Assembly (NCBI GenBank): GCA_964476585.1
Contig: CAYZBF010000002.1
Location: forward strand, 2,354 to 66,353
Length of the DNA: 64,000 nucleotides
Origin: an uncultured bacterium
GTDB lineage: Bacteria > Hydrothermota > UBA3072
Reading direction: 5' to 3'
In this document: piece after piece, positions 1,525-12,228 of the stretch
Position numbering within the stretch: the stretch's first letter is position 1
Layout of the letters: each line of letters begins with the position of its first letter
The notes under the pieces: model-generated
What the model saw: the letters and a program-made list of their open reading frames with translations, nothing else
What the model was told of the DNA's origin: nothing
Database searches by the model: none
Program-made: the position numbers and the translations under genes

Positions 1525-2280
1525 TTAATCCTTGATTCTCTTCAACACCCCTGTTCCGTTTGAGACCCAGTTGATAGAGAAACATTTCAAACGTTCTAAG
1601 CCCTGTAATCTTCTATTCAGCCCTATCTTCATGGATAGTGTATATATGTTATCAATTGTATAAACACCCCACCTTCCCAGATAATAAGGATTATTACTTT
1701 GAACTGGTATTGAAGTAAAAGCCTTTTCAAAACCTGCTTCCCGTGCCATCTCCCAATGCTCTTCTCTTGCTCTTCCAAAGGGGTAAGAGAAATATTTAAC
1801 CCTTTCCCCTATCTCGTCTGAAATCTTACCATAGGAGTTTTTCAGATCTTTTCTTACCAAATCCTTAGAAACCCTTGTGTAGTCTGGATGTAGATGAGAA
1901 TGTGAGCCAATGGTAACACCATATCTATGCATCTCTCTTATTCTATCCCATGAGAGGTGAACAAATGATTTTCCAAGTGTTACATCCCAATCGTTCTTCC
2001 TGCCCGCATATCCACTTACAACGAATATCAAAGGCGTAGCACCCTCATCCTGAAGAATAGGAAAGGCGTATCTATATAGGTTTTCAAATCCGTCATCGAA
2101 TGTAATAAGAACTCCTGTAGACCTTTTGAAGAATTCTTTCGGTGATAAAATTTTTAATCCTAAATTTTTAATGTACCTAATGTGTTCCCTGAAGGTAGGA
2201 GGCGAAACAACTGAACCATAGGGAGCAAGAGTTGGAGCTATATTATGATAGAGAAGGATTGATTTCATAGTAGAAGTCAA
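1525..2280 (-). CDS. polysaccharide deacetylase (NodB-homology, CE4) family protein
   Basis: TFDDGFENLY...FPIL and HSHLHPDY motifs match the NodB deacetylase signature. Confidence 0.7.
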   Translation of the reverse strand: MTSTMKSILLYHNIAPTLAPYGSVVSPPTFREHIRYIKNLGLKILSPKEFFKRSTGVLITFDDGFENLYRYAFPILQDEGATPLIFVVSGYAGRKNDWDVTLGKSFVHLSWDRIREMHRYGVTIGSHSHLHPDYTRVSKDLVRKDLKNSYGKISDEIGERVKYFSYPFGRAREEHWEMAREAGFEKAFTSIPVQSNNPYYLGRWGVYTIDNIYTLSMKIGLNRRLQGLERLKCFSINWVSNGTGVLKRIKD

Positions 2281-3334
2281 GAACTTCCTTACTTATCTTA
2301 TCCCAGGAATAACATTCAGCACTCTTAAGGCCTCCATTTATCAGGGAAGATTGAAGGGCTTCGTCCTTCATTACACGAATAATTGCTCTTGCAATTCCCT
2401 TAGAATCAGCGGGAGGAACAAGCAAACCATTTTTCTCATCTTCTATAACACATCTGTACCCGGGGATGTCCGAAGCAATGACCGGGACTCCTGAAGCCAT
2501 AGCTTCGATCAGGACGATGCCAAAACTCTCTCCTGTTATTGCAGGAGATATAAAAATAGTGGCTCTCCTGAAAATCTCGGGCAACTCCAGAGGTGCAACA
2601 AATCCTAGAAAGTGAATGGAATCTCCAAACTCTTTGGGAATATTCAATTTCGTTTCTTTATAACTTCCACCCACCACAGTAAGCGTTGCCTCGGGTATCA
2701 CTTTTTTAACTATAGGGAAGGCATGGATAAGAAACTGTAAACCCTTTCGCGGCTCAATCCTTCCAACAAATAAGATCTCTTTTGATGAGTCCTTAATAGA
2801 TTTTCCTGGTTTAAACCTTTCTGTATCCACTCCGTTTGGAATAATACGATAAACCCCAGGTAGATACCTTGCAATGGAATTACGGGCAGTTCGGGAGACT
2901 GCAATCTTTCCATTTATGCGCTTGAAATAGTTCTGCAAATACCCTTTAAATACTTTGAAAGGAACTGAAGACTCAAAGGTTGGATGGAATGTAAATATAT
3001 TTGTTTTTCTGGAAACTCTTAAGGCTAAAATTGGCAGGGTTGGAGCGAGTGTGCCATGGATATGGATGACGTCAAACTTATTCACAATCATAAAAAGTTT
3101 ACTTCCACTCACTCCATATGTAATTCTTGAACAGGATCGATTGGCAGGGATGACTATGGATCTTCCAACCCTTATGACTCTCTCCTCGTCAGGCCGAAGA
3201 TCACCTTCTATATTAGCCGTAAGAATCGAAACCGAGTGACCCTTCCTCTCAAACTGATTTGCAAGATTATATATATGTTCGCTTACACCGCCTACATGTG
3301 GATAATAAATATCGGAAACAAATAAAATCTTCAT
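2243..3334 (-). CDS. GT4-family glycosyltransferase (PimA-like)
   Basis: N-terminal MKILFVSDIYYPHVGGVSEH...; EX7E-type region ESFGIVLIEAMASGVPVIASD; EPRKG motif. Confidence 0.8.
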   Translation of the reverse strand: MKILFVSDIYYPHVGGVSEHIYNLANQFERKGHSVSILTANIEGDLRPDEERVIRVGRSIVIPANRSCSRITYGVSGSKLFMIVNKFDVIHIHGTLAPTLPILALRVSRKTNIFTFHPTFESSVPFKVFKGYLQNYFKRINGKIAVSRTARNSIARYLPGVYRIIPNGVDTERFKPGKSIKDSSKEILFVGRIEPRKGLQFLIHAFPIVKKVIPEATLTVVGGSYKETKLNIPKEFGDSIHFLGFVAPLELPEIFRRATIFISPAITGESFGIVLIEAMASGVPVIASDIPGYRCVIEDEKNGLLVPPADSKGIARAIIRVMKDEALQSSLINGGLKSAECYSWDKISKEVLDFYYEINPSLS

Positions 3335-3548
3335 TTTTCTGTTATGCTCCCGTTAAAAAATTTGATAAAATTGCCAAATCTTATTGTTCTCAAGGATTCA
3401 AGGGGTCGAGGGGTCAAAGACAAATTAGTCATAAGTCATTAGTCTTTAGTCATAAGTAGATAAATCATTTTTCATTTTACATTTTGCCTGTCTGCCGTGG
3501 CAACGGCGCAGGTAAACAATTTTCATTTCTTTGCGGCTCCGCTAGATA

Positions 3549-4391
3549 TTAATCTTTCCAGACCCTCTGAAAGACAAACCATTGATCGGGAAACATTGAT
3601 ATCGCTTTCTCAAGCATCTTAACCATCGCCGAGAGCAACTCATCTTCCGAATCATAATCATCCGGATATATAGGAGTGAAAAATCTTCCTTGATACCGAG
3701 GGGTATCGGGATCCAGGGCCATAAAACCTACAATCAGTGGTGCCCCTGTTCTCTTGGACAGGAGTGCCACTCCTCTCGGGATTGACACAGTTCTCCCGAA
3801 AAACTCATAATCTACTCCTGAGTCTTGAATGTCTCTATCTGCTATTAGAACCACGATTTTATTTTCTTTAAGTAATCTCACCAAGGTAAAGACAAGTCTT
3901 CTTTCCTCCAGGCGTAAAATCTTATTACCTAAATGTTCTCTGTAACGATTGTAAAAACGGAAGAACCTCATACCTGGTCCCTTTGATTCTGCAACAGAAT
4001 ATAGCGGAAAACCAAGGGAAGATAGATAAGGTCCTGCAAGTTCCATTCCACCGAGATGGGAAGCAATGAGTATTAATCCCCTACCTTTCTCCAGTTCCTT
4101 TCTAAGGAGATTAACTCTATAGGACTCAACCATAGAGTTCAAATATGACGGAGTCATATTTGGTATATTCAGAATATCACTATACACCAGTGCAAATTTG
4201 ATAAAGGTTGATTTTACCTCGCTCTCTTTTACTTCTCCCTTTATTGTCTTTATATTATCCCTTACCACTTCCCTTCTACACCTTGCAACTAAATACCATA
4301 ATAGACCAATAATCCTTACTATCCTGTCTCGAAAACCAATTGTGGTAAAACGAGCTATCTGGGTTATGATTAACATCAAAAACTGTTTCAT
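3549..4391 (-). CDS. LpxL/HtrB-family lipid A biosynthesis-type (lysophospholipid) acyltransferase
   Basis: N-terminal TM helix. Acyltransferase family with conserved C-terminal DQWFVFQRVW-type motif and GRG/LIASHLGG regions. Confidence 0.7.
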   Translation of the reverse strand: MKQFLMLIITQIARFTTIGFRDRIVRIIGLLWYLVARCRREVVRDNIKTIKGEVKESEVKSTFIKFALVYSDILNIPNMTPSYLNSMVESYRVNLLRKELEKGRGLILIASHLGGMELAGPYLSSLGFPLYSVAESKGPGMRFFRFYNRYREHLGNKILRLEERRLVFTLVRLLKENKIVVLIADRDIQDSGVDYEFFGRTVSIPRGVALLSKRTGAPLIVGFMALDPDTPRYQGRFFTPIYPDDYDSEDELLSAMVKMLEKAISMFPDQWFVFQRVWKD

Positions 4392-4393
4392 TT

Positions 4394-4828
4394 TTAGTGA
4401 TCCGTAGAGCCAAATCCGGAATTATTTCTGGTTGTTTCCTCTAAACCGTCTGTTTCCTCTAACCCTACCCTCACTATAGAGGTTATAACCAGTTGAGCTA
4501 TTCTATCGCCTTTCTTTATCTTAAAATCCCCACTGCTGAAGTTGAAGAGTATAACCTTTATCTCTCCACGATAATCAGAATCAATTGTTCCAGGAGAATT
4601 AAGAATCCCTATTCCTGAACGTGCGGCAAGTCCGCTCCTCGGGCGCACCTGACCTTCCATGCCAAAAGGGATCTCAACAGCAATTCCTGTTGGAACTACT
4701 TTGAAATCACCTGCCCCGATTACGCATTCTTCTCTTGCATAAAGGTCTAAACCCGAACTCCCCTCTGTCTGATAATTGGGTAACGGGAGTGTTCTATCCA
4801 GACGCTTAACTCTTATTTCTAAAGGCAT
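4394..4828 (-). CDS. dut: dUTP diphosphatase
   Basis: RSGLAARSGIGILNSPGTIDSDYRGEI dUTPase motifs; size 144 aa. Confidence 0.9.
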   Translation of the reverse strand: MPLEIRVKRLDRTLPLPNYQTEGSSGLDLYAREECVIGAGDFKVVPTGIAVEIPFGMEGQVRPRSGLAARSGIGILNSPGTIDSDYRGEIKVILFNFSSGDFKIKKGDRIAQLVITSIVRVGLEETDGLEETTRNNSGFGSTDH

Positions 4829-5999
4829 GAAGACCTTCTTTTAGAATATTCATTGCATCTCGAAGGTCATCCTCCTTCAAAACATACGCTATCCTTGCTT
4901 CATCCTTCCCCTTACCAGGAGTCCTGTAGAAACCAGCAGCAGGAGCAAGCATTACAGTCTTCCCATCCTTTTCAAAATCTGTTAACATCCAGCGAACAAA
5001 CTCCTCACTATCCAGAACAGGCAGTTTCACAACTGTATAGAAAGCTCCCTCAGGTTTTAAAGTAAAGGCTCCTTCTATCGCCTGAATCTCCTCATAGACA
5101 ACGTCACGGCGATGCTCGTATTCCTTCATCATATCCTTCAAAAATTCATGCCTTCGATTAAAACCTGCCGAAGCACCATATTGTTCTATTGTAGGTGGAC
5201 AGAGCCGTGCCATCCCAAATTTCAAGAGAGATTTGTACAATTCTTTATTCTTTGTCACAACAAACCCGATCCTTGCTCCACAGCAACTAAAGCGTTTCGA
5301 TATAGAATCAGCAATAGCAATCCTATCTTGCACAGATTCAAAACTGAGGAAAGAAGAGCACTCTTTTCCATCAAAGACAAACTCTCTGTAAACCTCGTCA
5401 GAAAACAACCAAAGATCATTCCTTAACGCAATATCAACTATCATCTCCATTTCATTACACCGCAACACAGTACCCGTTGGATTGTTAGGTGTACAGACAA
5501 GTATAGCTTTTGTTTTATCGGTAATAAGACTTTCAATCTTCTCCTTAGGCGGAAGGTGGAATCCATCTTCAACAGAAGTAGTGACAGGAACAATATTCAC
5601 TCCAACTATACATGCTATGCTATTATAATTGGCATAGAATGGCTCAGGGATTATTATCCCATCCCCAGGATTGAGGGTTGACAGCATCAGAAAAAGAACA
5701 GCCTCACTCCCCCCTGTGGTTATGAAGACATCTCCGGGTTCAATATTCAAGGAATAGTCCTCATTTAGGTAATGAGCTATAGCCTCTCGTAACATTGGAA
5801 TCCCCTGGGATGGACCATAAGAGAGAACCTTTTGCTCAAAATTTCGAATTGGATCGAATATTAAATCAGGAGTCTTCACATCTGGTTGTCCAATATTCAG
5901 GTGATAGACATGAATACCCCGCGTTTTTGCCTCATCTGCGTAAGGTATGAGTTTCCTGATAGGAGATTGGGGAATAGTTTTCCCTTTATTCGAAATCAT
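4806..5999 (-). CDS. class I/II PLP-dependent aminotransferase (aspartate aminotransferase-like)
   Basis: NPTG motif, DEVY motif and PLP-lysine motif SKRFSCCGARIGF are all present. Confidence 0.85.
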   Translation of the reverse strand: MISNKGKTIPQSPIRKLIPYADEAKTRGIHVYHLNIGQPDVKTPDLIFDPIRNFEQKVLSYGPSQGIPMLREAIAHYLNEDYSLNIEPGDVFITTGGSEAVLFLMLSTLNPGDGIIIPEPFYANYNSIACIVGVNIVPVTTSVEDGFHLPPKEKIESLITDKTKAILVCTPNNPTGTVLRCNEMEMIVDIALRNDLWLFSDEVYREFVFDGKECSSFLSFESVQDRIAIADSISKRFSCCGARIGFVVTKNKELYKSLLKFGMARLCPPTIEQYGASAGFNRRHEFLKDMMKEYEHRRDVVYEEIQAIEGAFTLKPEGAFYTVVKLPVLDSEEFVRWMLTDFEKDGKTVMLAPAAGFYRTPGKGKDEARIAYVLKEDDLRDAMNILKEGLHAFRNKS

Positions 6000-7156
6000 T
6001 AATCCTCCTTTTTTAAGCCAAGATACTGATCAAGGGCGTCTGAAAGTATATCAAGTCCTTCCTCAAGCATTTCAGAGTCAAGAAAGCGGTAATCAATAAG
6101 TACCTCCCCAGTATCCTCATAATCACTTGAATGAAAGTGAGTTGCAGGAGCAACAAATACTGTCTTTTTATCTCGGTTATAACCTGTTAATAACCATTCT
6201 ACAAACGTTTCAGTATTCGGAACTGGAAGCCTGAGAAAAACAGAACCCGTGGCTATGGACACTGAAGCAGAAATATCTTCTCTTTCTTCTACAAAGCTCT
6301 CTATAATCTTCTTTTTGAAATTCATTATATCCTTTCTTTCTTCACGTATTCCTTCACCATTTTTAATAAAATAATCGAGAAAGCTAAGCTGGTAAGGAGA
6401 AACCGGGAATAGATCCGCAGCAATCCTACCAATTCTTTCGGGCAAGGTTTTATGAAAGATAAGGACAGTAACATCATCCATTGAGAAGTCTTTCAGTGGT
6501 GATAAAATCTGTATCACTCGTTCACTCTCTAGGGCAATATTTCGAATTGTTATATACTCCTCTTCATTACTCACAAGGTTAGAGAGCGTTTCATCAACTG
6601 CAATATATAGATAATAGTTTCGACATACAAATAGGATCCTTTCCAATGTTTCTTCGGGGTAGATTATGCTACCTGAAAAACTTGGTGCAGAATAATAAAA
6701 TAACCTGCTTCTTGGTGTTATTTTATTCTCTATCTCTTTACGATATGGTAGATCATAATCATCCTGCATACTTGTTTCTATATAAAGTAGTTTTAAGCCC
6801 AGGGATTCAGAGCACTGTTTCAGAAAATAAGGAATAGGTGCAGGAGTTACTATTTCATCATTCAAATTCAGCACAGAAAAAAAAAGAGTATAATATGCTG
6901 AAAACTGATTTGGTAAAAGTAATATTTTATAAGAGGAATCTACTTCTAAATATTCCTTAAGTTCTTCCACCACAAAACTCAACTGTACTGGGTTGATTTC
7001 TTTCATTATATCTTGTGTAATAGGGCTAATAGTAAAAAGGTTAATTATCTGAACGTCTCTGTCCCTCCAGTACCCATACCTTTCCAAATAAAGATTGAAT
7101 AAAAATGGCTCATAAAGATTTGCTCTCCTCGAACAATATGCATCACCAGGAGACAT
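5999..7156 (-). CDS. divergent aminotransferase-fold paralog (degenerate motifs), function unknown
   Basis: C-terminal homology to the adjacent aminotransferase (TFVEWLLTGYNRDKKTVFVAPA versus EFVRWMLTDFEKDGKTVMLAPA). The SxxK lysine is retained, but NPTG and GxRxG are lost. Confidence 0.55.
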   Translation of the reverse strand: MSPGDAYCSRRANLYEPFLFNLYLERYGYWRDRDVQIINLFTISPITQDIMKEINPVQLSFVVEELKEYLEVDSSYKILLLPNQFSAYYTLFFSVLNLNDEIVTPAPIPYFLKQCSESLGLKLLYIETSMQDDYDLPYRKEIENKITPRSRLFYYSAPSFSGSIIYPEETLERILFVCRNYYLYIAVDETLSNLVSNEEEYITIRNIALESERVIQILSPLKDFSMDDVTVLIFHKTLPERIGRIAADLFPVSPYQLSFLDYFIKNGEGIREERKDIMNFKKKIIESFVEEREDISASVSIATGSVFLRLPVPNTETFVEWLLTGYNRDKKTVFVAPATHFHSSDYEDTGEVLIDYRFLDSEMLEEGLDILSDALDQYLGLKKED

Positions 7157-8378
7157 TTTTACTTTCCCCTAAAAGGGTAATATTGAAGACTTCTGGCTTG
7201 AAGAAGCGTTCCTGTATATCTTTTACCTCTTCAAATTTAACGCTATTGATCCTTTTTAAGAGTTCTGGAATAGAAACTCTTTTCCCAAGATACATTTCCT
7301 CCTTTACATTCCTACCCATCCTGCTAGCATTATCTTCCATAGAAATCACAATATTTCCCCTTATCCTTTCTTTGGCCACTTCGACCTCTTCTCTCGAGAA
7401 TCTGAGAGAATTAAACAAATCTATAATTGCATCCAAAGTCTTTGATAGTTTATCCTTGTCTGTTGATAAATAAATATAAAAGATACCGGTATCGCTGAAA
7501 AATTCAGGGAAAGCTGAGACATAATACACCAAACCCATCTCTTGACGCAATTTCTGGAATAATCTTGAACTCATCCCCATACCTAAAATGGAAAGCCCAA
7601 TAAGAAAAGGAAACCTTTCTTTATTATTATAGGGAAAACACTTTGAAGATAGGGTAACATATTCATGATTTAACTCAGGCTTTGAAACGATATTGACACG
7701 AGTCTGTTTTTCTGGAAGGAATTCTCTCTCAAATCCTTTACCTTTTCTGTCTCCAAGCTTTTCACTAATTTGAACACATAACTCTCTATGATCCACCTTA
7801 CCCACTGATGTAACGAATATCCTATCAGTAGTATAATTTTTTTGCCAGAAATTTCTAATATCACTAAAAGTAATACTTTGAACTGATGCAGGTGTTCCCA
7901 ATATCGGCGAAGATAGAGGATGGTCCTTTCCAAAAGTGGTGCCCATGGCATAAAAGAAAAGAAGACTTTCTGGAGAATCATAGAAACTTTTGATCTCTTC
8001 CTGTATCACCAAACGTTCCATTTCAATCGAATCTTCCCTGAACAAAGGATTCCTTATCAAATCCAAGAGAACATCTACTGCGAGTGGAAGTTCCTCAGGA
8101 AGGATATGAGCATAGAAAGAGGTCCATTCCCTAGATGTTGAAGCATTCACAATTCCACCTCTGGATTCTATCGCGGTTGATATATCTCTCTCGCTTCTTT
8201 CCTTTGTACCCTTAAATACCGCGTGCTCAATGAAATGACATATACCCTCCTCCTTCTTGCTCTCATCCCTTGATCCTATTTTCACATAAAAACCTATAAT
8301 TGTCGAGAGAGCTGCCGGTATAAATTCTGAAACCACCGTTACTCCTGAAGGAAGGATAGTCTTTTTATAATTAATCAT
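7143..8378 (-). CDS. M16-family zinc metallopeptidase (pitrilysin/insulinase-like)
   Basis: Inverted zinc-binding motif HFIEHAVFKGT (HxxEH). Confidence 0.8.
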   Translation of the reverse strand: MINYKKTILPSGVTVVSEFIPAALSTIIGFYVKIGSRDESKKEEGICHFIEHAVFKGTKERSERDISTAIESRGGIVNASTSREWTSFYAHILPEELPLAVDVLLDLIRNPLFREDSIEMERLVIQEEIKSFYDSPESLLFFYAMGTTFGKDHPLSSPILGTPASVQSITFSDIRNFWQKNYTTDRIFVTSVGKVDHRELCVQISEKLGDRKGKGFEREFLPEKQTRVNIVSKPELNHEYVTLSSKCFPYNNKERFPFLIGLSILGMGMSSRLFQKLRQEMGLVYYVSAFPEFFSDTGIFYIYLSTDKDKLSKTLDAIIDLFNSLRFSREEVEVAKERIRGNIVISMEDNASRMGRNVKEEMYLGKRVSIPELLKRINSVKFEEVKDIQERFFKPEVFNITLLGESKNVSW

Positions 8379-8766: not shown

Positions 8767-8842
8767 AGGAATATGATAAAGAATTCACTTAATATGTCAA
8801 TGGGGATAGCTGCTCAATAGCTCTAAGCAAAACGAAAAAATT

Positions 8843-8862
8843 AGACGCAGATAAACACAGAA
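8843..8862. repeat. left copy of ~20-nt inverted repeat (agacgcagataaacacag) bracketing the ECF sigma operon
   Basis: Its reverse complement ctgtgtttatctgcgtc matches ctgtgtctatctgcgtt at 10407-10423. Confidence 0.55.
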
Positions 8863-8989
8863 AATATTAGAGCACTAGAGCAAAAATAAAAGAGTTTGTC
8901 AGTTGGTAAGTTAGTCAGTTTTTTTATTGATATAAGTGGTTTAATTGATAATACTTCTTCTTTTTTTAACCTTATCTAAGCAATCTCGA

Positions 8990-9030
8990 ATCTTAACCGT
9001 CCAACACACCAATTCACCAATCGTCTAACT
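8990..9030 (+). promoter_or_regulatory. candidate ECF-type promoter (AAC-N16-CGTC) upstream of the ECF sigma gene
   Basis: ccAACacaccaattcaccaatCGTCtaa lies ~100 nt upstream of the 9125 start. It resembles autoregulated ECF promoters (GAAC-N16/17-CGTC). Confidence 0.3.
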
Positions 9031-9124
9031 AAGAAGATACAAGAAAGCTTGTCAAAATGTTATTTATCAATAATATTTATTGTGAATTTCTGAATATAAT
9101 AGAAAGGAAAGGATACTACAGAAA

Positions 9125-9646
9125 ATGGATGATGATATCTTAATTGAAAAGTGTAAGAAGGGTAATATGGAAGCATATGGAGAATTAGTAAAAAGATACA
9201 TGAAAAAGGCTTATAATGTAGCTCTTTATTTCACAAGAGATCCAAATGATGCATGGGATATATCTCAAGAAGGGTTTTTGAATGCATGGAAGGCAATAAG
9301 GCGATTCAATACAAAAAAGGCATTCTTCCCGTGGTTGTACACAATAATAAAGAACGAATCAATGAAGAAATTTAGAAGAGAAAAAAGAAAAAATAGAGGA
9401 AATCCTATTCCAATAACTGTTATTGAATCACCACATAAGAGATTGGAGAAAATTGAAAGTATAGAAAGGCTTAAAAGAGCTATCTCACGGCTTGATAGAA
9501 AAAAGCAGGAAATAATATATATGAGACATTTTGCAAAGATGAGTTATAATGAAATTGCAGAATCACTGAATATTGCAAAAGGCACTGTAATGTCCCGCCT
9601 ATATTATGCAAGAAAAGCGCTTCTAGAGGAATACAGGAATGGCTGA
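9125..9646 (+). CDS. ECF-subfamily RNA polymerase sigma-70 factor
   Basis: Region 2 (YGELVKRYMKKAYNVALYFTRDPNDAWDISQEGFLNAWK) and region 4 HTH (SYNEIAESLNIAKGTVMSRLYYARKAL). Confidence 0.85.
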   Translation: MDDDILIEKCKKGNMEAYGELVKRYMKKAYNVALYFTRDPNDAWDISQEGFLNAWKAIRRFNTKKAFFPWLYTIIKNESMKKFRREKRKNRGNPIPITVIESPHKRLEKIESIERLKRAISRLDRKKQEIIYMRHFAKMSYNEIAESLNIAKGTVMSRLYYARKALLEEYRNG

Positions 9647-10079
9647 TTTAGATACCCTTATAAATAAGTACCTTGATAAAGAATTATCCAAAAAGGAAAA
9701 AGAAGAACTTCAGAATCGTGTCGAAAAAGACAAAAAATTAAAGAAAGAATTAAAGGAATTGGACGAAATGAGGGAGGTGATTTCAATGCTAAAACCAAAG
9801 GATCCGGATAAAGAATGGGAGAGATACTGGAGCAATCTTTATAATCGCCTTGAAAGAGGTATTGGCTGGATAATAACATCAATCGGAGCAATACTCTTGC
9901 TAACATTCGCTGGATTTCAACTAGTGAAGGAACTCATAAAAGACCCGGAACTCGCCCTTTATGCAAAGATTGGTATAATAGCGTTGATGATAGGTTTTGT
10001 AATCCTTTTTGTCTCTGTAGTGCGGGAAAGAATCTTTATGGGAAAATCGGATAAATATTCAAAGGAGGTAAAACGATGA
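9639..10079 (+). CDS. putative membrane-anchored anti-sigma factor
   Basis: Overlaps the sigma gene stop (ATGGCTGA). It has a charged N-terminal coiled region followed by two TM helices, which is the usual arrangement for an ECF partner. Confidence 0.5.
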   Translation: MADLDTLINKYLDKELSKKEKEELQNRVEKDKKLKKELKELDEMREVISMLKPKDPDKEWERYWSNLYNRLERGIGWIITSIGAILLLTFAGFQLVKELIKDPELALYAKIGIIALMIGFVILFVSVVRERIFMGKSDKYSKEVKR

Positions 10080-10390
10080 TACTTTCAACATCTCATACTG
10101 TGCCAGGGAAAGAAATTAAGGAAACTCTTGGCATTGTAAAAGGTAATACGGTTAGAGCGAGACATATAGGTAGAGATATTATGGCTGGTTTAAGAAATAT
10201 AGTGGGTGGAGAGATAACTGAATATACAAAAATGCTTGCTGAATCAAGAGAGCAGTCAATCGATAGAATGATAGAAGAAGCAGAATCACTGGGTGCAGAT
10301 GCTATAGTAGGTATTCGTTTTGTAACCTCATCGGTTATGCAGCGTGCATCTGAATTACTCGCTTACGGAACAGCAATAAAGCTGAAATAG
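10076..10390 (+). CDS. YbjQ/UPF0145 (DUF74) family protein
   Basis: Full-length similarity to the YbjQ family (GEITEYTKMLAESREQSIDRMIEEAESLGADAIVGIRF). Overlaps the upstream gene (ATGA). Confidence 0.8.
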   Translation: MILSTSHTVPGKEIKETLGIVKGNTVRARHIGRDIMAGLRNIVGGEITEYTKMLAESREQSIDRMIEEAESLGADAIVGIRFVTSSVMQRASELLAYGTAIKLK

Positions 10391-10445: not shown

Positions 10446-11321
10446 CTATTCAAATAATGCCTGTACAAAATCCTCTGCGTTAAATGGTATCAAATCTTCT
10501 AACTCCTCACCTATACCCAAAAAACGGATTGGTATATCTAATTCTTCTACAATTGCAATTACCATTCCTCCTTTTGCAGTACCATCAAGTTTAGCAAGAG
10601 CAACACCAGTAATCCCAATAGCATCATTAAAATTCTTAGCCTGTTGCAGAGTATTCCCACCTATATTAGCATCAATCACAAGGATTGTTTCATGTGGTAG
10701 ATCCTCTCTCTTTTTTGAAAGAACCCTCTTTATTTTCTTCATTTCCTCCATAAGATTCCTCTTGGTATGGAGTCTTCCCGCTGTATCAATTAAAAGATAA
10801 TCCATACCCCTCGCCATAGCTGCATCAACGGCATCAAATGCAACAGAAGCTGGATCTGCTCCATAATGAGATTCCACAACTTCTACCCCAATCCTTTTCC
10901 CCCATTCTTTCAGTTGTTCTCCTGCTCCTGTTCGATATGTATCCGCACATGCGAAAATAACCTTATTCCCCCCCTCCTTAAGCATATATCCTCTTTTCCC
11001 TATGGTTGTGGTCTTCCCAACGCCATTAACCCCAACATATAGTTCAACAATAGAGGGCTTTCCATCCAGACTTTTATTCGGTTGTTTATTAAGGATATCA
11101 ATCAGTTCTTTTTGAATTCGAGGATAGTACTCTTGAGGCCCTACACTCTCAAGAACATCAATCAACCTTTTCACCGTAAAAAGCCCCAAATCCGCCTGAA
11201 CCAGGAGATCTTCTATATCAAATAAAAGATCCGGATCACGCCTTCCGATTAGATTTCTTATCTTCTTGCTAAAACTACTCCTTGTCTTCTTTAGAGCCTC
11301 GCGAAGCCCCATACTCCGCAA
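10446..11321 (-). CDS. ftsY: signal recognition particle receptor FtsY (NG domain only)
   Basis: GVNGVGKTTTIGK P-loop, DTAGR motif and no M domain. The likely true start is at MGLREALKKTRSS (approx 11312). Confidence 0.85.
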   Translation of the reverse strand: MRSMGLREALKKTRSSFSKKIRNLIGRRDPDLLFDIEDLLVQADLGLFTVKRLIDVLESVGPQEYYPRIQKELIDILNKQPNKSLDGKPSIVELYVGVNGVGKTTTIGKRGYMLKEGGNKVIFACADTYRTGAGEQLKEWGKRIGVEVVESHYGADPASVAFDAVDAAMARGMDYLLIDTAGRLHTKRNLMEEMKKIKRVLSKKREDLPHETILVIDANIGGNTLQQAKNFNDAIGITGVALAKLDGTAKGGMVIAIVEELDIPIRFLGIGEELEDLIPFNAEDFVQALFE

Positions 11322-12228
11322 CCTCCCTTTCTAATCTCCTTATCCTTTCAGAGAGTGCAGTTACAGCTTCTGTTATAAAACCTACTGTGAAGAGTACTAA
11401 GCCTGAGACCACTAATAGGATGACGAGATAGAGGATGGGTCGGTAACCGTGATGATAAACAAACCGCTGAATAATCCCATATACCCCTATAAGGAAACCA
11501 AGTAGGATAAGTACCATCCCTGAAGTCCCAAAGAAAAGTAAAGGTTTTTTCAAAAGAGAAATTTGCAACTTTACTGACAATAGATCCATAACTCCTATCA
11601 CTATCCTGCCTTTACCTTTATATTTGGACTCACCATGTAACCGGGAACGCAATTTAACTTTTACCTCAGAGACGGTAAATCCTTTACTCACTGCAAGGGA
11701 TACGATATAACGGTGCCAGTCTTTCCGGAGGTTTATCTCTTCTAATACTTTACTTCTTAGCGCCTTAATAGCATTCTGGTCATGAATAGGTAGATGAAAT
11801 AGATGACGAGATAACCAATTATAAACCGCCGATACAAACCTTTTCTGGTACTGCCCCTCTTTCCAGCCGGTTACTATATCAAAACCTTTTTCCATTTCAT
11901 CCAAGAGTAATGGAATGTCATGTGCATCAAACTGAAGGTCTGAATCCATAAGGACTAATATTGGAGAATCAGCATTGTGAAAACCTGTAAGTATTGCTTC
12001 GGTTTTACCAAGATTTAATCGATGTCGAACAACCTTTAAATATTTGTATTCCCTGGATAATTTCAGAGCTTCATCATAGGTTCCATCTATGCTTCCATCA
12101 TCCACCAGGACAACCTCATAATCTCTCTCATCCCCATCGACCATATCCTGTATCTCTTTCATAAGTGGGTCGATATTAGCCCCCTCGTTATAGGCGGGGA
12201 TAATTATTGTGATTCTTTGCTTACCCAT
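11275..12228 (-). CDS. GT2-family polyprenyl-phosphate glycosyltransferase (DPM1/GtrB/ArnC-like)
   Basis: IIIPAYNEGANI, VLVDDGSIDGT and MDSDLQ motifs; two C-terminal TM helices. Confidence 0.8.
   Translation of the reverse strand: MGKQRITIIIPAYNEGANIDPLMKEIQDMVDGDERDYEVVLVDDGSIDGTYDEALKLSREYKYLKVVRHRLNLGKTEAILTGFHNADSPILVLMDSDLQFDAHDIPLLLDEMEKGFDIVTGWKEGQYQKRFVSAVYNWLSRHLFHLPIHDQNAIKALRSKVLEEINLRKDWHRYIVSLAVSKGFTVSEVKVKLRSRLHGESKYKGKGRIVIGVMDLLSVKLQISLLKKPLLFFGTSGMVLILLGFLIGVYGIIQRFVYHHGYRPILYLVILLVVSGLVLFTVGFITEAVTALSERIRRLEREVAEYGASRGSKEDKE

Follow-up and report, generated by a model that had tools for sequence, protein, structure and literature searches.

Dead paralogs of fold-type-I pyridoxal 5′-phosphate (PLP) enzymes are a known kind, with SPT1, Ser4 and ScAlt2 as precedents. 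In the SPT1 (LCB1)/SPT2 (LCB2) pair, SPT1 lacks the PLP-binding lysine and other catalytic residues and is nevertheless conserved and required (PMC6148460). In Serratia sp. ATCC 39006, the SerTA proteins Ser4 and Ser5 are encoded by tandem genes, one of which lacks the catalytic lysine, and the inactive subunit is needed for the activity of the complex (PMC11726168). The yeast duplicate ScAlt2 is reported to have lost alanine transaminase activity (PMC5960717), and a catalytically impaired DHS paralog of trypanosomatids to activate its active partner (PMC3663545). Here we analyzed a tandem pair of class I aminotransferase genes in a 64,000-nucleotide (nt) stretch of DNA (hereafter "the window"; contig CAYZBF010000002.1, positions 2,354 to 66,353 of the forward strand, assembly GCA_964476585.1) from an uncultured bacterium (GTDB lineage Hydrothermota; UBA3072). 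The downstream gene, canAT, encodes a canonical PRK07568-type aminotransferase. The upstream gene, psiAT, encodes a homolog of the same fold which has lost catalytic residues, is under purifying selection, keeps its place in the gene order phylum-wide and is retained where canAT has been lost. On balance, we favor the view that psiAT is a selected, catalytically dead pseudo-aminotransferase with an autonomous non-catalytic role that is not limited to partnering canAT.

A canonical and a degenerate aminotransferase in tandem

The initial annotation of the window had described two tandem homologous class I aminotransferase genes which overlap by 1 nt, and both observations hold. psiAT and canAT share 25% identity over 328 amino acids (aa) (BLASTP, E 3e-20), their family profiles match with a probability of 99.6% (hhalign, E 7e-25), and the junction of the two genes reads TAATG. 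canAT belongs to both Pfam PF00155 (187.9 bits) and NCBIfam PRK07568 (NF005744, 576.5 bits). In contrast, psiAT stays under the PF00155 gathering threshold (15.1 against 19.7 bits) and under the whole-protein cutoff of NF005744 (112.6 against 389 bits), although the latter is its top family match. In an AlphaFold2 model based on an alignment of 52 orthologs (pLDDT, the predicted local distance difference test, 75; predicted TM score 0.75), the fold-type I architecture of psiAT, with a large alpha/beta/alpha domain and a small domain built from the two chain termini, is predicted to be intact. A Foldseek search of the PDB with this model returned class I aminotransferases, with Thermotoga maritima TM1698 (2gb3) as the top match (TM 0.78, E 9e-25), followed by Thermus thermophilus AspAT, KAT-I and others. 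The isoelectric point of psiAT is more acidic than that of canAT (median 4.8 versus 5.75), which favors no hypothesis.

A word-indexed search with psiAT yielded 52 clusters at 51–100% identity, most of them without a precomputed Pfam hit, and every named one belongs to candidate division WOR-3. A scan of GTDB representatives placed psiAT in metagenome-assembled genomes (MAGs) of Ca. Stahlbacteria, WOR-3 and TA06. When 1.84 billion representatives were searched exhaustively with a profile, only five clusters had E<1e-30, namely the psiAT family and four distant groups (P0053-P0056) with about 24–30% identity to the window psiAT, while ordinary aminotransferases begin at 116 bits. No description of the family was found in the literature, and the WOR-3 genome paper makes no mention of aminotransferases or peptidases.

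The gene order M16 peptidase-psiAT-canAT-dUTPase is kept across WOR-3 (Stahlbacteria), even where psiAT has only 26–30% identity, and is also found at the loci of canAT orthologs that are 57–61% identical to the canAT of locus L011. canAT adjoins psiAT in the window, in 7 non-redundant main-family ortholog loci and in all distant lineages. The shared order in distant lineages indicates that duplication and degeneration of psiAT are ancient and common to the sampled WOR-3 lineages; the duplication is thus neither local nor recent.

Eighteen cofactor and substrate positions were located in aligned sequences from genomic loci (22 psiATs, 12 canATs), and their mapping was cross-checked against the 2gb3 alignment and hhalign. 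All 18 positions are kept in each of the 12 canAT orthologs, in line with the motifs TPNNPTG, SDEVY and SISKRFSCCGARIGF on which its canonical status had been based. The motifs previously listed for the upstream protein (APSFSGS, VDETL, SPLKDFSMDDVTV and TFVEWLLTGYNRDKKTVFVAPA) are likewise present, and the predicted loss of PLP-phosphate and substrate-carboxylate contacts was borne out, with the equivalents of Asn194, Tyr225, Arg266 and Arg386 all replaced. Asn194 corresponds to F160 in the main family and to I/H/P/F in distant lineages, and Tyr225 to Leu (L191), or to Phe in most distant lineages and Tyr in one. The Arg266 equivalent is non-basic in the main family (Thr230 by hhalign, Asp228 by MAFFT L-INS-i), and Arg386, the anchor of the substrate alpha-carboxylate, is replaced by Leu, Val or Met. 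Ser255 corresponds to N/S219 in the main family, the GGS phosphate loop has become (Q/R)F-SAYY, the PLP-stacking aromatic residue is a proline (P109), and the IGQPD substrate loop is gone. Moreover, the Tyr70 loop (SYGPSQGIP; 11 residues), which enters the active site of the partner in dimeric aminotransferases, is deleted in 22/22 psiATs. The distant groups P0053-P0056 also lack the Schiff-base lysine, Arg266, Arg386 and the Tyr70 loop. Of the active-site positions examined, just one is kept in all 22 psiATs, namely the Asp222 equivalent, D188, which is near-invariant (≥90%) in the 52-cluster alignment. The upstream gene thus neither keeps all PLP-binding residues nor belongs to an unrelated fold.

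A further statement, that the aligned lysine is kept, applies to the window psiAT (K222) and to its clade (6/6), but not to the orthologs at large: the Lys258 equivalent is Arg in the sister clade of ~389-aa psiATs (11/11) and S/R/D/E/L in five distant lineages. Since this residue varies by lineage, Schiff-base chemistry is not what selection preserves, which strengthens the pseudoenzyme interpretation and renders an enzyme with a new substrate, another of the options originally offered, unlikely. For psiAT to be a neofunctionalized enzyme, with new substrate or chemistry and a cofactor bound non-covalently or replaced, one could invoke that Asp188 is kept in all locus-derived psiATs compared, and that the remodeled pocket residues (Y88, Y89, P109, F111, F160, L191, T230, H235) are invariant or nearly so within the main family. 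Fold-type-I enzymes without the lysine which depend on pyridoxamine 5′-phosphate do exist, e.g., ColD and E1. However, no alternative polar or catalytic constellation is common to all psiAT lineages, with H235, H342, Y88 and F160 not retained in P0053-P0056. This difference between the pockets of the main family and the distant groups counts against a conserved binding site for a new ligand or cofactor and against a new enzymatic activity. All phosphate and carboxylate anchors are lost together with the substrate loop, and most of the residues in their place are bulky and hydrophobic, as is typical where a pocket has been filled. We therefore regard such an enzyme as very improbable; judged from its residues, psiAT is catalytically dead.

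Two other known types of protein were considered and rejected. A MocR/GabR-type regulator would carry a GntR winged-helix domain, which is absent from psiAT: the protein of 385 aa has a sub-threshold PF00155 match and no other Pfam domain at E≤1, and its N-terminus aligns with the N-terminal arm of canonical aminotransferases (S-x-R motif). A moonlighting enzyme of the MalY type does not fit either, as MalY retains its catalytic apparatus and psiAT does not.

Selection on psiAT and loss of canAT

psiAT is a selected gene and is not decaying. Its open reading frame (ORF) is intact in all 22 loci (366–394 aa), and 62 columns are invariant across the 52 clusters. The ratio of nonsynonymous to synonymous substitution rates (dN/dS) is 0.05–0.13, indistinguishable from the 0.07–0.15 of the neighboring M16 gene (Nei-Gojobori, 13 ortholog pairs). 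These values refute a non-functional pseudogene remnant that is merely carried along in the operon, a scarcely credible reading even though psiAT scores below the family cutoffs and evolves fast over deep time.

Conservation along the protein is uneven. In the main family, the majority residue has a mean frequency per block of 0.81–0.91 in the N-terminal 50 residues and of 0.86–0.95 in residues 311–380; conservation is thus highest in the N-terminal arm and the small domain, not in the former PLP-binding core. The arm is poorly modeled in the monomer (pLDDT 25–51). High conservation together with low pLDDT is the pattern expected for a segment which depends on, and is ordered by, a partner, and the model therefore suggests such a role for the arm.

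In 12 loci (L001/L017, which are one contig, L002, L009, L010, L012, L013, L015, L016, L018, L019, L020 and L021), canAT is missing and psiAT is directly followed by the dUTPase gene, dut. These loci form one clade on the psiAT tree, comprising at least nine species-level lineages, and their sister, L011, has the tandem. The MAG GCA_964525555.1 (contig CAZGHN010000001.1) is an example of a genome without canAT. Most of the psiAT-dut spacers are canAT remnants: the 5′ side corresponds to the first ~10 codons (..SKKGKNTPKSS..) and the 3′ side to the last few (..KEGL), which bear the ribosome-binding site of dut. These stubs indicate that canAT was removed by internal deletions. The spacers of L010 and L019 measure just 16–17 nt and hold no recognizable remnant.

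Locus L014 carries, between psiAT and dut (11167-11387), an intact 73-codon N-terminal relic of canAT (MISEKGKNTPKSS...GIPELRMV, followed by a stop codon) with 63% identity to the window canAT. In its near-identical sister L018, only about 12 canAT codons are left, and the two loci capture a deletion in progress. The ratio of nonsynonymous to synonymous differences (pN/pS) between the relic and the canAT of L011 is 0.118, compared to 0.132 between the intact genes of L011 and L003. As the relic resembles intact genes in this respect, while the synonymous divergence (dS) of psiAT at the base of the clade is ~1, it has not drifted neutrally since that base, and the L014 deletion is recent. Other branches are more decayed, which argues for at least two independent losses; on the sequence of this one relic, canAT was probably lost more than once.

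A relocated canAT ortholog for this clade was not found in a database that holds these same MAGs. A search with the canAT of L011 gave only four clusters at ≥73% identity, as opposed to dozens of psiAT clusters in the canAT-less clade, which indicates that this database contains no such ortholog, and each of the four matches a psiAT-bearing contig in size (one pair 3424 versus 3423 bp). A metagenome scan with patterns from the same protein, which were overly specific, returned the identical contig only.

psiAT itself shows no sign of these events. Its dN/dS is alike in lineages with and without canAT, and the canAT-less clade has no long stem branch. psiAT thus survives the deletion of canAT unchanged, indicating that selection maintains it for a function independent of canAT. 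The initial annotation had proposed a pseudo-enzyme that serves as regulatory or heterodimer partner; the pseudoenzyme part of this stands, whereas a partnership with the neighboring paralog does not suffice to explain a protein that is kept where canAT is deleted.

This bears directly on the alternative in which canAT and psiAT form a heterodimer with psiAT as its obligate, non-catalytic subunit, after the pattern of SPT1/SPT2 and Ser4/Ser5. The heterodimer would have one working site, whose openness, specificity or stability is set by psiAT, and a substitute aminotransferase would take the place of canAT in the canAT-less clade. Class I aminotransferases function only as dimers, and their active sites lie where the two subunits meet. 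The N-terminal arm, which packs on the other subunit in aminotransferases, is highly conserved in psiAT, and the tandem arrangement with a stop/start overlap of 1–4 nt is kept across deeply diverged lineages. Dead fold-type-I PLP paralogs are moreover known to act in this way (PMC11726168; PMC6148460). Against an obligate subunit stand the intact and equally constrained psiATs of the canAT-less lineages, in which no relocated ortholog was found, and the absence of a burst of change on the branch leading to them. In addition, with the Tyr70 loop deleted in all psiATs, psiAT cannot supply the trans contact of Tyr70 to the PLP phosphate. Taken together, we consider the obligate heterodimer rather unlikely.

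For the favored autonomous role, we propose the following course of events. Early in the history of WOR-3, a PRK07568-type aminotransferase gene would have been placed between M16 and the dUTPase gene and duplicated in tandem. The upstream copy would then have lost its PLP chemistry, keeping the scaffold while nearly all cofactor and substrate contacts were replaced or deleted and the Tyr70 loop was lost. Present-day psiAT is most likely a non-catalytic dimeric scaffold or regulatory protein, with the conserved N-terminal arm and the C-terminal small domain as likely interaction surfaces. In tandem genomes, the two proteins would be co-translated, and mixed dimers may form between them. The non-catalytic mode of protein binding, the dimerization and the identity of any partner are what we infer here. 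More tentatively, the "dead" copy could be the indispensable one of the two, with an autonomous, PLP-independent function across WOR-3 that survived repeated deletion of canAT, its fold repurposed as a free-standing non-enzyme.

Several points weigh against an autonomous role of a dead protein. Over deep time psiAT is the fastest-evolving gene of the block (26–30% identity, compared to 37–39% for M16 and 59–63% for canAT), as could likewise be expected of a structural protein under loose constraint. In the genomes without canAT, psiAT may pair with an aminotransferase that is not a canAT ortholog. Lastly, the clade of the window keeps Lys222 and Ser219, two residues that may allow weak residual PLP binding by the window psiAT.

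The M16 neighbor and the gene block of the window

The gene upstream of psiAT encodes an M16 peptidase, and psiAT could be an accessory partner of this protein (adaptor, chaperone or regulator), its link to canAT being merely historical. The start of psiAT overlaps M16 in every locus that holds both genes, canAT-less and distant lineages included (14 nt in most, 32 nt in L027), and the identities of M16 and psiAT drop together across lineages (80/77, 74/71, 68/65, 55–58/51–53 and 37–39/26–30%). In two other phyla, moreover, an alanine-aminotransferase-like or alanine dehydrogenase gene follows the orthologous M16. However, nearly all same-strand neighbors in the window block overlap (ORF list), and M16 and dut overlap by 4 nt in Thermodesulfobacteriota, where the gene order is rpsO-pnp-M16-dut. 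Given this compact housekeeping operon and the pervasive overlaps, the M16/psiAT overlap is weak evidence of a physical complex, and we downgraded it as a sign of a specific one. The parallel divergence may reflect two faster-evolving genes on the same tree. M16B peptidases work as dimers of M16 subunits, either identical or different, and we know of no aminotransferase-fold partner for them. A dedicated M16 partner is thus improbable.

The M16 neighborhood was surveyed in four loci outside WOR-3. Besides the Thermodesulfobacteriota operon, these comprise pnp-M16-alanine dehydrogenase-polysaccharide deacetylase in Calditrichaeota, M16 followed by a 482-aa alanine-aminotransferase-like gene in Ignavibacteria, and an M16 ortholog in unrelated context in Acidobacteria; the alanine-related neighbors lie at L033:5001-7699 and L034:943-3292. 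Judged from these four loci, M16 may be recurrently linked to amino-group metabolism. In WOR-3, the aminotransferase pair is thus placed within an apparently old housekeeping operon. The best NCBIfam matches of M16, the YfmH/YfmF "EF-P 5-aminopentanol modification-associated" families, were rejected as a clue to function, as the scores of 106 and 72 bits (cutoffs 250 and 285) reflect generic M16B similarity. Database gene calls for M16 (P0222, P0223) are 397 aa long and start 14 codons downstream of the 411-aa ORF (7146-8378 region); the 411-aa form is backed by orthologs. In the distant locus L027, a third PF00155 aminotransferase gene lies immediately upstream of M16 (4399-5640), and an N6-methyltransferase fragment between canAT and dut (9491-9703). 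The features of the window locus are given in Table 1.

Table 1. Coordinates of the aminotransferase pair, its residues, junctions and neighbors in the window (position 1 is the first nucleotide of the window).
Feature	Position	Strand	Basis or remark
psiAT, degenerate class I aminotransferase paralog, 385 aa	5999..7156	minus	ORF list
canAT, canonical PRK07568-type PLP aminotransferase, 397 aa	4806..5999	minus	ORF list, family profiles
canAT K235 codon (catalytic positions intact)	5297-5295	minus	Residue mapping
psiAT/canAT junction	5997..6010	minus	TAATG: psiAT stop overlaps canAT start, 1 nt
Strong Shine-Dalgarno sequence AAGGAGG for canAT	6010-6004	minus	Inside final psiAT codons K-K-E-D
psiAT K222 codon, aligned with the Schiff-base lysine	6491..6493	minus	Lys in window clade only
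psiAT D188 codon, Asp222 equivalent	6593..6595	minus	Retained in all 22 locus-derived psiATs
psiAT F160 codon, in place of the NPTG Asn (Asn194 equivalent)	6677..6679	minus	Alignments
M16B (pitrilysin-family) zinc peptidase gene, HFIEH motif intact	7143..8378	minus	ORF list, family search
M16/psiAT overlap, 14 nt (M16 3′ end, psiAT start)	7143-7156	minus	ORF coordinates
dUTPase gene (dut), 23-nt overlap with canAT 3′ end	4394..4828	minus	Conserved downstream neighbor of the pair
Best sigma-70-like promoter match, TTGACA-16-TATCAT, 11/12, upstream of thioesterase gene	8773..8800	minus	Consensus match only

The two ends of psiAT are dual-coding or carry signals. The 14-nt M16/psiAT overlap codes for both the M16 C-terminus (..N-V-S-W-stop) and psiAT M-S-P-G-D, and the M16 bases TGG-TGA in it may be the reason why Gly4 is conserved specifically in psiAT. 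At the other end, the psiAT C-terminus ..GLKKED (window 6002-6016), which is conserved in the tandem clade, encodes the ribosome-binding site of canAT; in the canAT-less clade, the psiAT C-terminus is different and longer (..GLQSVKEVEQ). The best promoter match is a possible start of a thioesterase-M16-psiAT-canAT-dut-acyltransferase transcription unit, judged from its consensus match. Promoter-like matches in total are not above shuffled expectation, and no convincing minus-strand terminator was found inside the thioesterase-to-acyltransferase block.

Downstream of dut, a minus-strand trio (window 1525-4391) encodes an LpxL/PIM-type lipid acyltransferase (3549-4391), a GT4 glycosyltransferase (2243-3334) and a polysaccharide deacetylase (1525-2280). 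Most WOR-3 loci of sufficient length keep this trio in synteny, and it looks like a glycolipid module (GlcN-lipid or PIM-like). The GT4 gene is preceded by a 214-nt gap with a promoter-like site (3503-3474). On the plus strand lies a divergent trio of an ECF sigma factor, a putative membrane anti-sigma protein and a YbjQ-family gene (9125-10390), which is also found beside the block in L032. In this locus, which is closely related to the window, a PDDEXK_3 nuclease-family gene is inserted between the acyltransferase and GT4 genes (8795-9172).

Comparison with known pseudoenzymes

Members of the psiAT family carry the names "aspartate aminotransferase", "PLP-dependent enzyme" or "hypothetical protein" in databases. 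As psiAT genes are annotated as aminotransferases or PLP enzymes, metabolic reconstructions of WOR-3/Stahlbacteria over-count transaminases, and in the canAT-less clade annotation may credit a transaminase activity that is absent.

By both sequence and structure, the closest relative of canAT and psiAT is the PRK07568 type (TM1698, 2gb3). All three share the family-specific C-terminal motif F-x-x-W-(M/L)-L-x-(D/E)-(F/Y)...K-T-x-x-x-A-P; in contrast, the PLP and substrate contacts of this type are absent from psiAT, and only canAT is a member.

Like SPT1, psiAT is a degenerate or lysine-less paralog beside a lysine-bearing one, although the window psiAT itself keeps K222. The SPT proteins differ in being eukaryotic, in belonging to the alpha-oxoamine synthase family and in that their two genes are not adjacent. 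SPT1 is not known to persist without SPT2, whereas psiAT outlives the active copy in a whole clade, and for psiAT a heteromer is only a possibility. Ser4/Ser5 resemble our pair as a bacterial tandem of aminotransferases with one inactive member, but they are sugar aminotransferases (DegT-type) from a secondary-metabolite cluster, and Ser4 is truncated at both ends and has helix residues that reach into the active site. ScAlt2 and the DHS paralog are likewise reported as enzyme duplicates kept after the loss of catalysis. They come from other families or hosts, the DHS paralog is not a PLP enzyme, and ScAlt2 is likened to psiAT by its reported activity, not by its residues.

Pseudoenzymes derived from PLP enzymes are few, and the known fold-type-I cases SPT1 and Ser4 are silent halves of heteromers. 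psiAT differs from the precedents SPT1, Ser4 and ScAlt2 as a full-length AAT_like class I protein that is bacterial and present throughout the sampled lineages of the mostly uncultured phylum WOR-3, is encoded in a housekeeping operon, has lost the trans-acting loop and outlives its active paralog. Thus, in contrast to these silent subunits, the persistence of psiAT after the loss of canAT points to a function of the aminotransferase fold which needs neither PLP nor the parent enzyme.

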